From the IMG/VR virus record IMGVR_UViG_2880372215_000005: a stretch of 56,474 nucleotides of DNA. The stretch is one strand, 5' to 3'. Positions 52,582-55,053 of this stretch are shown one piece after another. This DNA comes from a virus. Taxonomy: Duplodnaviria > Heunggongvirae > Uroviricota > Caudoviricetes. Both the position numbers and the translations under genes were made by a program. Under the pieces are notes generated by a model. That model was not told the DNA's origin. It worked only from the letters and a program-made list of their open reading frames with translations, and made no database searches. Positions within the stretch are counted from its first letter, which is position 1. Every line of letters begins with the position of its first letter.

Positions 52582-55053
52582 ATGAGTAAAGTCTTTATTT
52601 GCGCCGCCATTCCGGACGAACAGGCAATAAAGGAAGAAGGTGCAGTCGCTGTAGCCACTGCCATTGAAGCCGGTGATGAACGTCGCGCCCGCGCAAAATT
52701 TCACTGGCAATTCCTGGAGCATTATCCGGCTGCTCAGGACTGCGCTTATAAATTTCTTGTTTGCGAGGATAAACCCGGTATACCCCGCCCTGCCCTCGAT
52801 TCCTGGGATGCTGAATATATGCAGGAAAACCGCTGGGATGAGGGGGCTGCTTCCTTTGTCCCGGTTGAGACTGAATCCGATCCGATGAACGTCGCTTTTG
52901 ACAAGCTGGCCCCTGAAGTACAGAACGCTGTCATGGTTAAGTTCGACACATGTGAAAACATCACCGTTGATATGGTGATTAGCGCGCAGGAATTGTTGCA
53001 GGAAGACATGGCAACATTCGACGGACATATCGTTGAAGCGTTGATGAAAATGCCAGAAGTTAACGCCATGTATCCGGAGCTTAAGCTGCATGCCATCGGG
53101 TGGGTTAAGCATAAATGTAAGCCTGGTGCCAAATGGCCCGAAATTCAGGCAGAAATGCGCATCTGGAAAAAACGTCGCGAAGGTGAACGCAAGGAAACCG
53201 GAAAATACACGTCTGTTGTTGATCTCGCCCGCGCCAGAGTCCACCGACAGCACACTGAAAACTCAGCAGAAAAAATCCCCCCTGTCACTGCAGTCATTCG
53301 TCGCGAATATAAGCAGACATGGAAAACACTGGATGACGAACTGGCCTACGCTCTCTGGCCTGGTGATGTGGATGCCGGAAACATTGACGGCAGCATCCAT
53401 CGCTGGGCAAAAAATGAAGTTATCGACAACGACCGCGAAGACTGGAAGCGTATCTCGGCATCAATGCGCAAACAGCCTGATGCCCTTCGCTACGACCGCC
53501 AGACTATTTTTGGCCTTGTCCGTGAACGTCCGATCGACATTCACAAAGACCCTGTGGCACTGAACAAATACATTACTGAATACCTGACTACAAAGGGCGT
53601 GTTTGAAGATGAAGGAACAAATCAGAGCGCAACTGACACTCTCTCGTCGCCAGTACCAGAAACTGATGCAGTGGAAACGGCAATTCCGGACAACGAAAAA
53701 ACCGAATGCAAAGTGGAAGTCGAACCATCTGTAGAGCGTGAGGGGCCGTTCTACTTCCTCTTCACCGACAAGGATGGCGAAAAATACGGTCGCGCAAACA
53801 AACTTTCTGGTCTGGATAAGGCGCTGGCTGCCGGGGCTACTGAAATCACAAAAGAAGAATATTTTGCCCGAAAAAATGGCACATACACAGGCTTACCGCA
53901 AAATGCAAATACCGCACAAAATTCTGAACAACCAGAACCGGTAAAAGTTACCGCTGACGAAGTAAAGAAAATTATGCAGGCAGCCAATATCAGCCAGCCT
54001 GACGCCAATCAGTTGCTCGCCGCATCACGTGGTGAATTTGTTGCAGGGATTAGCGACCCGAATGATCCGAAATGGGTGAAGGGGATTGAAACCCGCGATT
54101 CTGTGAACCAGAACCAGCAAGAAACGGAACAGAACGACCAGAAAGCGGAACAAAACAGCCCAAATACGCAACAAAACGAGCCAGAAACGAAACAACCTGA
54201 GCCAGTAGCGCAACAGGAACCGGAAAAAGTCTGCACCGCCTGCGGTCAGACCGGCGGCGGCAACTGCCCTGATTGTGGCGCGGTGATGGGCGACGCAACA
54301 TACCAGGAAACATTCGATGAAGAGTATCAGGTTGAAGTTCAGGAAGATGATCCGGAGGAAATGGAAGGCGCTGAACATCCACACAAGGAGAACACTGACG
54401 GCAATCAGCATCACGATAGCGATAATGAAACTGGCGAGACGGCAGATCACTCAATTAAGGTGAACGGTCATCAAGAAATCACATCCACCAGCAGGACGTG
54501 TGACCATCTAATGATCGACCTTGAAACCATGGGAAAAAATCCTGATGCCCCGATCATCTCAATAGGTGCAATATTTTTCGATCCGCAAACCGGAGATATG
54601 GGACCGGAATTTAGTAAGACTATCGATCTGGAAACTGCTGGCGGGGTCATTGATCGGGACACCATTAAATGGTGGCTTAAGCAATCACGCGAAGCGCAAT
54701 CTGCCATTATGACCGATGAAATCCCGTTAGATGATGCACTATTACAATTGCGGGAATTTATCGACGAAAACTCCGGTGAATTTTTTGTTCAGGTCTGGGG
54801 AAATGGAGCCAACTTCGACAACACGATTTTGCGCCGTTCATACGAACGGCAGGGGATCCCCTGCCCGTGGCGTTACTACAACGATCGCGATGTACGCACA
54901 ATCGTTGAGCTGGGGAAAGCCATAGACTTCGATGCCAGAACGGCTATTCCATTCGAAGGTGAGCGCCATAATGCACTTGATGACGCCCGTTACCAGGCAA
55001 AATACGTTTCAGTTATCTGGCAAAAACTGATCCCGAATCAGGCTGATTTTTAA
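52582..55053 (+). CDS. large multidomain protein with C-terminal DEDDh (DnaQ-like) 3'-5' exonuclease domain and a CxxC..CxxC zinc ribbon
   Basis: 823 aa; C-terminus ..HLMIDLETMG...FVQVWGNGANFDNTIL...HNALDDARYQAKY.. (Exo I/II/III motifs); zinc ribbon CTACGQTGGGNCPDCG; Q/E/N-rich linker. Confidence 0.65.
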   Translation: MSKVFICAAIPDEQAIKEEGAVAVATAIEAGDERRARAKFHWQFLEHYPAAQDCAYKFLVCEDKPGIPRPALDSWDAEYMQENRWDEGAASFVPVETESDPMNVAFDKLAPEVQNAVMVKFDTCENITVDMVISAQELLQEDMATFDGHIVEALMKMPEVNAMYPELKLHAIGWVKHKCKPGAKWPEIQAEMRIWKKRREGERKETGKYTSVVDLARARVHRQHTENSAEKIPPVTAVIRREYKQTWKTLDDELAYALWPGDVDAGNIDGSIHRWAKNEVIDNDREDWKRISASMRKQPDALRYDRQTIFGLVRERPIDIHKDPVALNKYITEYLTTKGVFEDEGTNQSATDTLSSPVPETDAVETAIPDNEKTECKVEVEPSVEREGPFYFLFTDKDGEKYGRANKLSGLDKALAAGATEITKEEYFARKNGTYTGLPQNANTAQNSEQPEPVKVTADEVKKIMQAANISQPDANQLLAASRGEFVAGISDPNDPKWVKGIETRDSVNQNQQETEQNDQKAEQNSPNTQQNEPETKQPEPVAQQEPEKVCTACGQTGGGNCPDCGAVMGDATYQETFDEEYQVEVQEDDPEEMEGAEHPHKENTDGNQHHDSDNETGETADHSIKVNGHQEITSTSRTCDHLMIDLETMGKNPDAPIISIGAIFFDPQTGDMGPEFSKTIDLETAGGVIDRDTIKWWLKQSREAQSAIMTDEIPLDDALLQLREFIDENSGEFFVQVWGNGANFDNTILRRSYERQGIPCPWRYYNDRDVRTIVELGKAIDFDARTAIPFEGERHNALDDARYQAKYVSVIWQKLIPNQADF

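Follow-up and report, generated by a model that had tools for sequence, protein, structure and literature searches.

A recent survey of 325 lambdoid phages reported DnaQ-like 3'-5' nucleases in their recombination (Rec) modules and distinguished a 'Tritos' class of four phages, all of them Chi-rich, in which a nuclease is present while the annealase, the single-stranded DNA-binding protein and the anti-RecBCD function are absent (PMC12315714, Genome Research 2025). The main text of that survey contains no analysis of the domain structure of the Tritos-type nuclease. In the Rac prophage the corresponding slot is held by recE-recT; the N-terminal domain of RecE has no known function, and full-length RecE improves linear-linear recombination (PMC11611040, a 2023 review). 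In Escherichia coli K-12 the dicBF operon is transcribed from dicBp, which lies upstream of ydfA, into a polycistronic message that extends over ydfDE, and the 135-amino-acid (aa) DicA acts as its repressor; the only products of this operon that have been characterised are DicF, DicB and YdfD (PMC10448788). We describe here an 823-aa protein encoded in a 56,474-nucleotide (nt) stretch of phage DNA (IMG/VR record IMGVR_UViG_2880372215_000005), which in its entirety is called the window below. This protein would be a RecE whose 5'-3' PD-(D/E)xK head has given way to a 3'-5' one, and it would be the only Rec-module gene product of a Tritos-type phage.

The counterpart of the gene in phage Tritos is 93.9% identical in nucleotide sequence over 100% of the gene, and the two modules do not differ in kind: both consist of an orthologous nuclease without an annealase in a Chi-rich phage. 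A preliminary description of this DNA, made from the letters alone, had as its central point a large exonuclease-domain protein in the recombination slot with no annealase partner. In view of the Tritos class and of the high identity with its gene, that point was already published in 2025 as a module type. It is the architecture of the protein that is detailed here.

The C-terminal domain is a complete DEDDh (DnaQ-like) exonuclease of the DexA/Rv2179c subfamily, with a predicted 3'-5' polarity, as the preliminary description had proposed. A domain search places Pfam PF16473 (the Rv2179c-like 3'-5' exoribonuclease domain, a family present in 1,615 phage records) at aa 642-813 (E 2.4e-67; 226.5 bits, where the cut-off is 27), the match covering positions 2-177 of the 177 in the profile; RNase_T, the general DEDD family, matches the same domain weakly. 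The catalytic pentad is complete, with D646 and E648 in MIDLET, D746 in NFDNT, and H796 and D801 in HNALDD. T4 DexA (PDB 8KEL, E 1.4e-6) is the sole solved structure found by sequence, and motifs I and II of the two proteins align residue for residue. In this alignment D646/E648/D746/H796/D801 correspond to D7/E9/D119/H186/D191 of DexA; for motif III, MAFFT was off by one register and the H-x4-D of DexA (H186/D191) was matched to H796/D801 by eye. DexA is thus a phage enzyme of the same PF16473 subfamily with the same five aligned residues, but it is a stand-alone protein of 227 aa with extra loops, only ~28-32% identical to the domain here. On this evidence the protein is very probably a 3'-5' exonuclease.

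The founding member of PF16473 is the Mycobacterium tuberculosis exoribonuclease Rv2179c, and the Prokaryotic Genome Annotation Pipeline (PGAP) calls some cluster members of our protein '3'-5' exoribonuclease'. A 3'-5' RNase of this kind could mature or turn over operon RNAs such as DicF, a processed small RNA (sRNA) with which the gene shares its operon, or could trim RNA 3' tails. However, the PDB sequence search yields DexA, a DNase, and has no match to Rv2179c at E <= 1, while the processing of DicF in K-12, a strain with only a ydfE pseudogene, is ascribed to RNase E and RNase III (PMC10448788). A literature search that paired Rv2179c with prophage found nothing. With the RecE-like context described next favouring DNA, we think an RNase quite improbable.

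The segment before the nuclease is homologous to RecE. Residues 474-621 are 74% identical (over 148 aa) to aa 471-611 of the Rac-SA53 RecE, a stretch that in RecE lies immediately before the PD-(D/E)xK nuclease domain, and by this identity the protein is a relative of RecE in which the nuclease head has been swapped. The NCBIfam equivalog model for exodeoxyribonuclease VIII (NF007259) scores 278.7 bits against a cut-off of 1269, with only the linker region aligning, and no Pfam match to a PD-(D/E)xK head (PF12684-like) was found in the protein; the earlier statement that the nuclease is not of the RecE type thus holds, a DEDDh domain standing in its place. The linker contains the motif RGEFVAGISDPNDPKWVKG, a Q/N-rich stretch, a zinc ribbon and an acidic tail. 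Here the preliminary description needs some correction. It gave the ribbon as CxxC-N9-CxxC; the ribbon is present, but its spacer is of seven residues (C551-x2-C554-x7-C562-x2-C565), as it is in Rac RecE. Similarly, the acidic, Q/E/N-rich composition that it noted is real but falls into two parts, a Q/N/E/P-rich one before the ribbon (aa 471-550) and an acidic one after it (aa 566-640, with 22 D/E vs 3 K/R).

With Rac RecE the protein therefore shares its general plan (both are large proteins in which a long N-terminal region is followed by a linker, Q/N-rich and acidic and bearing a CxxC-N7-CxxC ribbon, and then by the nuclease at the C-terminus) as well as its early-left operon slot next to xis and int. 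It differs in that the head of RecE is a 5'-3' PD-(D/E)xK nuclease while that here is a 3'-5' DEDDh one, in that no RecT follows, and in that neither its first ~230 aa nor its unit at aa 385-437 was found in Rac RecE.

An AlphaFold2 model of aa 1-470, built on 65 sequences and with a mean predicted local distance difference test (pLDDT) score of 76.9, has three confident units, at aa 1-222, 243-340 and 385-437, with disordered linkers between them. The first two correspond to the N-terminal domain of ~330 aa described earlier; the third had escaped notice. Only the second is also recognisable in Rac RecE (aa 262-336 against RecE 295-368, 27% identity). The third is near-invariant among YdfE-type proteins and the relatives with an annealase-like head that are discussed below. 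Fold comparison of the aa 1-470 model gave no informative match, and no single-strand annealing fold or profile (Rad52/Erf/RecT/Red-beta or the RecA-like Sak4) was detected anywhere in the 823 aa, so that the N-terminal region does not prove to be a known annealase in disguise. When aa 1-460 were compared with the 1.84 billion representatives of a 50%-clustered protein library, only 192 relatives appeared at E <= 0.001, which makes this a narrow N-terminal family.

The exchange of heads is not confined to the gene in the window. Local phmmer searches of the cluster representatives of at least 550 aa distinguish three heads: the DexA-like DEDDh head, the RecE-type nuclease head and a third one. 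Among representatives with the N-terminal type of the gene here, these heads are found on two, four and 18 proteins respectively, with none recognised on five; for the RecE-like N-terminal type the numbers are six, four and one, again with six proteins on which none was recognised. The three representatives with neither N-terminal type comprise two with a RecE-type nuclease head and one without a recognised head. All six combinations of the two N-terminal types with the three heads consequently occur.

The third head, of ~290 aa, has no Pfam assignment; NCBI calls the proteins that carry it 'exodeoxyribonuclease VIII', and phrog_2489 has them as 'exonuclease'. It is probably a Rad52-like single-strand annealing domain. 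Rad52_Rad22 (PF04098) is the Pfam family matched by most of its members (39 of 58, all of them sub-threshold, with a best E of 0.0044), and the match falls on a signature helix, KKSLTDAxKKALSxLGFSADVWLG; PDB sequence searches with third-head profiles gave no match, and the indication of Rad52 comes only from the fold comparison and these recurrent sub-threshold Pfam matches. In E. albertii and Salmonella the third-head genes lie upstream of int, flanked by a Gam-like gene and a Sipho_Gp157 gene. Their products resemble the protein here in the N-terminal region (30-49% identity) and in operon position, but they differ in having a probable annealing head rather than a nuclease, with the Gam-like gene upstream and Sipho_Gp157 downstream. 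These may be the 'RecE-2' proteins, which are without a nuclease domain and whose roles are unknown (PMC12315714). A linker peptide, RGEF/YVxGISDPNDPKWVK (aa 478-496, positions 54013-54069), is common to the protein here, to Rac RecE and to one third-head protein, P0277. This peptide and the unit at aa 385-437 may be considered candidate partner-binding elements.

The repeated joining of this N-terminal type to recombination heads ties the gene to DNA-end metabolism. It is tempting to suppose that the YdfE/RecE-type N-terminal region is a shared recombination adaptor that delivers interchangeable DNA-end heads to one common target, but we offer this only tentatively and would give it rather less than an even chance. 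The same fusions bear on another role, in which the enzyme would break DNA fragments or oligonucleotides down to the mononucleotides that phage replication uses and would have no part in recombination. Such scavenging, or breakdown of host DNA, would agree with the nature of its closest characterised homologue, since host DNA degradation is among the roles annotated for DexA as these are given in PMC12153337. However, both the fusion to RecE-type modules and the alternation of the heads with the RecE nuclease and an annealase-like domain point instead to the DNA-end metabolism of recombination, and the gene sits in a Rec-module slot. Nor are temperate lambdoid phages known for wholesale degradation of host DNA, and on balance we consider the scavenging role unlikely.

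That slot, directly upstream of xis and int, is indeed the one that recE-recT occupies in Rac, and it comes here without a partner. A tblastn search of the window for RecT, for a RecE-type nuclease and for a Rad52-like domain found none (all E > 0.7), and none of the three is annotated in the closely matching prophage of strain NCCP 15739. More broadly, no annealase gene was seen near the DexA-type gene in any of six contexts (the window, O157 TR01, NCCP 15739, mEp460_ev081, vB_EcoS-640R1 and Evi). The preliminary description had noted that no RecT/Bet/Erf-like gene adjoins the nuclease and had doubted that it belonged to a classical recombineering pair; both its observation and its interpretation are supported. 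No recognisable RecBCD inhibitor is found beside the gene, but the small early-left open reading frames (ORFs) of the window have matches only among PHROGs of unknown function and may include a novel SSB or Gam analogue. The Chi octamer (GCTGGTGG) occurs nine times in the window against 2.86 +/- 1.61 in shuffled sequence, where 0 of 100 shuffles reached nine. Six copies lie on the phage top strand (the minus strand of the window) and three on the other; most are found at 36283-43044, near Q and the nin-like region towards the right end of the virion map, and two at 54485-54492 and 55074-55081. In this Chi excess the window fits the class of lambdoid phages described as lacking anti-RecBCD and rich in Chi (PMC12315714).

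The N-terminal sequence also connects the gene to K-12. Its aa 1-255 are 93% identical to the Qin pseudogene ydfE (b1577; Qin region L013, 3579-4499), which is cut by IS2, and the gene order dicF-dicB-ydfD-ydfE is common to the window and K-12. Moreover, two new Pfam families, PF27430 (YdfE_N) and PF27432 (YdfE_C), are recorded on cluster mates that are 86-96% identical over a 460-aa N-terminal query. Sequence and gene order together identify the gene as the intact counterpart of K-12 ydfE; it closes a dicBF-type early-left operon, and the prophage that carries it is lambdoid and Rac/Qin-like. The K-12 copy, by contrast, has nothing after aa 255. Without the exonuclease part in that copy, the K-12 studies of the dicBF operon are uninformative on the exonuclease.

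The local order in the window is a DicA-like repressor gene, three small ORFs including ydfC, a DicF-like region, dicB, ydfD (DUF1482), the exonuclease gene, xis and int, followed by ompW. The DicF-like region is collinear with K-12 dicF and its flanks are near-identical, while the 3' half of the sRNA is divergent; it was seen only by alignment to K-12, an Rfam search of 48000-56474 at the gathering score giving no match. A promoter and terminator scan returned counts no higher than in shuffled sequence, and promoter-like sites are not enriched near the gene, so that an internal promoter is unsupported. From this arrangement we infer that the exonuclease gene would be expressed only after the DicA-like repressor is lifted, much like a gene of the lambda pL operon.

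Another possible role of the protein is in defence. As an HREX-type prophage nuclease it would leave the unmodified DNA of the host intact, digest incoming phage DNA with modified cytosines, such as that of T-even phages, and so protect the lysogen. EcD, a DexA homologue of E. coli, is reported to break down T4 DNA in vitro and to protect cells against T4, and Escherichia accounts for 38% of 3,196 bacterial DexA homologues (PMC12153337). The neighbouring dicB is the subject of a paper whose title describes protection of E. coli from phage infection, and dicBp is spontaneously on in ~1% of the cells of a dicBF-deleted reporter strain (PMC10448788). Like EcD, the domain here comes from E. coli, is homologous to DexA and keeps the catalytic residues, but the resemblance does not go much further. 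EcD is short and stands alone, starting with MIDTET and ending with TIPETYD (as deduced from primers), whereas the domain here runs from MIDLET to NQADF behind 640 aa of RecE-like sequence. By the criteria of PMC12153337 itself the agreement is poor. The residues proposed for recognition of 5-hydroxymethylcytosine are not kept, as W152 of DexA is Y766 here and D169 falls in a 14-residue segment that is absent, although at ~30% identity this alignment is uncertain. Conversely, the tetramer residue D90 of DexA, which EcD has lost, is kept here as D718. Finally, a position at the end of a repressor-controlled early-left, lytic operon beside xis and int, with no promoter-like excess, argues against constitutive expression. 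We consider a defence nuclease about as unlikely as scavenging.

The reading that we prefer is one of recombination through the host. The YdfE-type N-terminal region (aa 1-440) would be a targeting or scaffold module that positions the protein, and the disordered Q/N-rich and acidic linker with its zinc ribbon, near-unchanged from RecE, would join it to the head. The DexA-family DEDDh head would remove nucleotides from 3' ends, most likely those of DNA, and the protein would be produced during lytic growth, once the DicA-like repressor has been lifted. It is known that 3' tails block the loading of RecBCD and that host 3'-5' exonucleases blunt such tails. The phage enzyme may trim 3' DNA ends in the same manner, for example by blunting 3' tails, so that host RecBCD would load and act at the enriched Chi sites of the phage. 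Rather than making 3' tails for an annealase, the phage would depend on host RecBCD, Chi and RecA. Taken as a whole, this chain (DNA digested from its 3' ends by an exonuclease that is made upon derepression, in a phage rich in Chi and reliant on host RecBCD) seems to us to have an even chance of being correct.

Several considerations weigh against it. A search of the ydfE literature found no functional study. DnaQ-like 3'-5' exonucleases usually inhibit homologous recombination (PMC12315714), and a role in defence has been reported for E. coli DexA homologues (PMC12153337). The name of PF16473 is that of an exoribonuclease, so that the substrate may be RNA. The N-terminal fold has no informative match, and it is domain shuffling that suggests the 'targeting' role. 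The Chi excess, too, is modest (six plus three by strand) and could be inherited from neighbouring modules.

The gene itself is a very common prophage gene of E. coli and has already been catalogued. The 823-aa ORF marked out in the preliminary description does run from ATG to stop on the plus strand, with a GAGG Shine-Dalgarno sequence ~11 nt upstream, and phrog_2082 ('exonuclease') matches it over residues 1-823 of 823. The identical protein, WP_000048551.1, is called 'exonuclease' or '3'-5' exonuclease' in many E. coli O157:H7 genomes; the exact sequence is present on at least 999 contigs and its 90% cluster has 18,012 members. Matches covering at least 80% of the query occur in 3,532 of 5,426 complete E. 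coli genomes; where a genome has a match at all, the median number of matching places, whatever their length, is two. Counterparts at 90-95% nucleotide identity are found in phages mEp460_ev081, Tritos, HannyBb, PhiR42_1 and Evi, and in the PPompW prophages of enterohaemorrhagic E. coli. Antisense ORFs within the gene (for example 52522-53253, minus strand) were rejected, as it is the plus frame that has full-length homologues and a ratio of nonsynonymous to synonymous substitution rates (dN/dS) below 1. In three cattle O157 strains an IS1203-family insertion splits an otherwise identical gene (NZ_CP028695.1, 2937370-2941154), which PGAP gives as two pieces.

The gene could perhaps be a relic in decay, left by domain shuffling among prophages and without present function. 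The IS2-truncated pseudogene of K-12 and the IS1203 insertion in some O157 strains would agree with this, and many O157 prophages are defective. Against two active phages (mEp460 and Evi), however, dN/dS is 0.15-0.56 in every segment, the linker included, which indicates purifying selection on the whole ORF and thus a maintained gene rather than debris. The gene is annotated as uninterrupted in all three of the plaque-forming or inducible phage contexts inspected (mEp460_ev081, Evi and vB_EcoS-640R1), and the query has full-length matches in three more phages (Tritos, HannyBb and PhiR42_1), quite apart from the ~3,500 genomes and the many contigs mentioned above. The conservation data largely refute a relic, and we regard it as most improbable.

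Features of the exonuclease gene, its product and its surroundings (positions in the window)
Feature	Position	Strand	Remarks
DicA-type 135-aa helix-turn-helix repressor gene, head of the leftward early region	49737..50144	+	
DicF-like sRNA region upstream of dicB	51888..51938	+	alignment to K-12
dicB	52113-52301	+	directly upstream, same operon
ydfD/DUF1482	52298-52489	+	directly upstream, same operon
Whole gene, intact ydfE-type 'exonuclease', 823 aa	52582..55053 (stop codon included)	+	100% identity to WP_000048551.1
N-terminal folded subdomain, aa 1-222, alpha/beta plus helices, YdfE-type ('A') N-terminus	52582..53247	+	AlphaFold2, pLDDT ~90
Helical subdomain, aa 243-340	53308..53601	+	AlphaFold2; 27% identity to Rac RecE over 75 aa
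Small conserved unit, aa 385-437, beta-hairpins plus helix	53734..53892	+	motif GPFY...GRANKL...EI..EEY
RecE-homologous linker, aa 474-621	54001..54444	+	74% identity to Rac-SA53 RecE aa 471-611
Four-cysteine zinc-ribbon motif CTAC-N7-CPDC (C551, C554, C562, C565)	54232..54276	+	also in Rac RecE at 541-555
DEDDh 3'-5' exonuclease domain (predicted), DexA/Rv2179c family, aa 642-813	54505..55020	+	PF16473 match and catalytic residues
Excisionase (xis)	55118-55366	+	64 bp downstream of the exonuclease gene
Integrase (int)	55344-56474	+	after xis; ompW adjoins the prophage in matching genomes

The surroundings of the gene are those of a known prophage. Positions 7004-56474 of the window match the ompW-adjacent lambdoid prophage of strain NCCP 15739 at 99.6% identity, apart from an extra repeat of ~7.3 kb. 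This is a direct tandem duplication in the late region (portal, capsid and terminase genes), with copies at 17370-24650 and 24650-31970, where the NCCP 15739 prophage has a single copy. The copies are spaced 7279-7308 nt apart, a range that implies small indels between them, and the repeat may be either a real duplication or an assembly artefact.

The gene is among the commonest prophage genes of E. coli, with several copies in O157:H7, and its product is the intact YdfE. It amounts to a natural experiment in which the 5'-3' nuclease of RecE has been replaced by one of opposite polarity, with no annealase. One immediate consequence is that database names are unreliable in this family, 'Exodeoxyribonuclease VIII' covering proteins that have a 3'-5' nuclease head or no nuclease at all. 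The most interesting lead is the combinatorial exchange of heads, which includes a probable annealase. If the adaptor reading is true, the nuclease-less 'exodeoxyribonuclease VIII' proteins (probably 'RecE-2') would be fusions to an annealase, and it would become testable what the N-terminal region of RecE does. The role of the gene bears on the way in which lambdoid phages that have neither a Red- nor a RecET-type system achieve recombination-dependent growth through host RecBCD and Chi, and it could reveal the purpose of that N-terminal region, which affects the efficiency of linear-linear recombineering.

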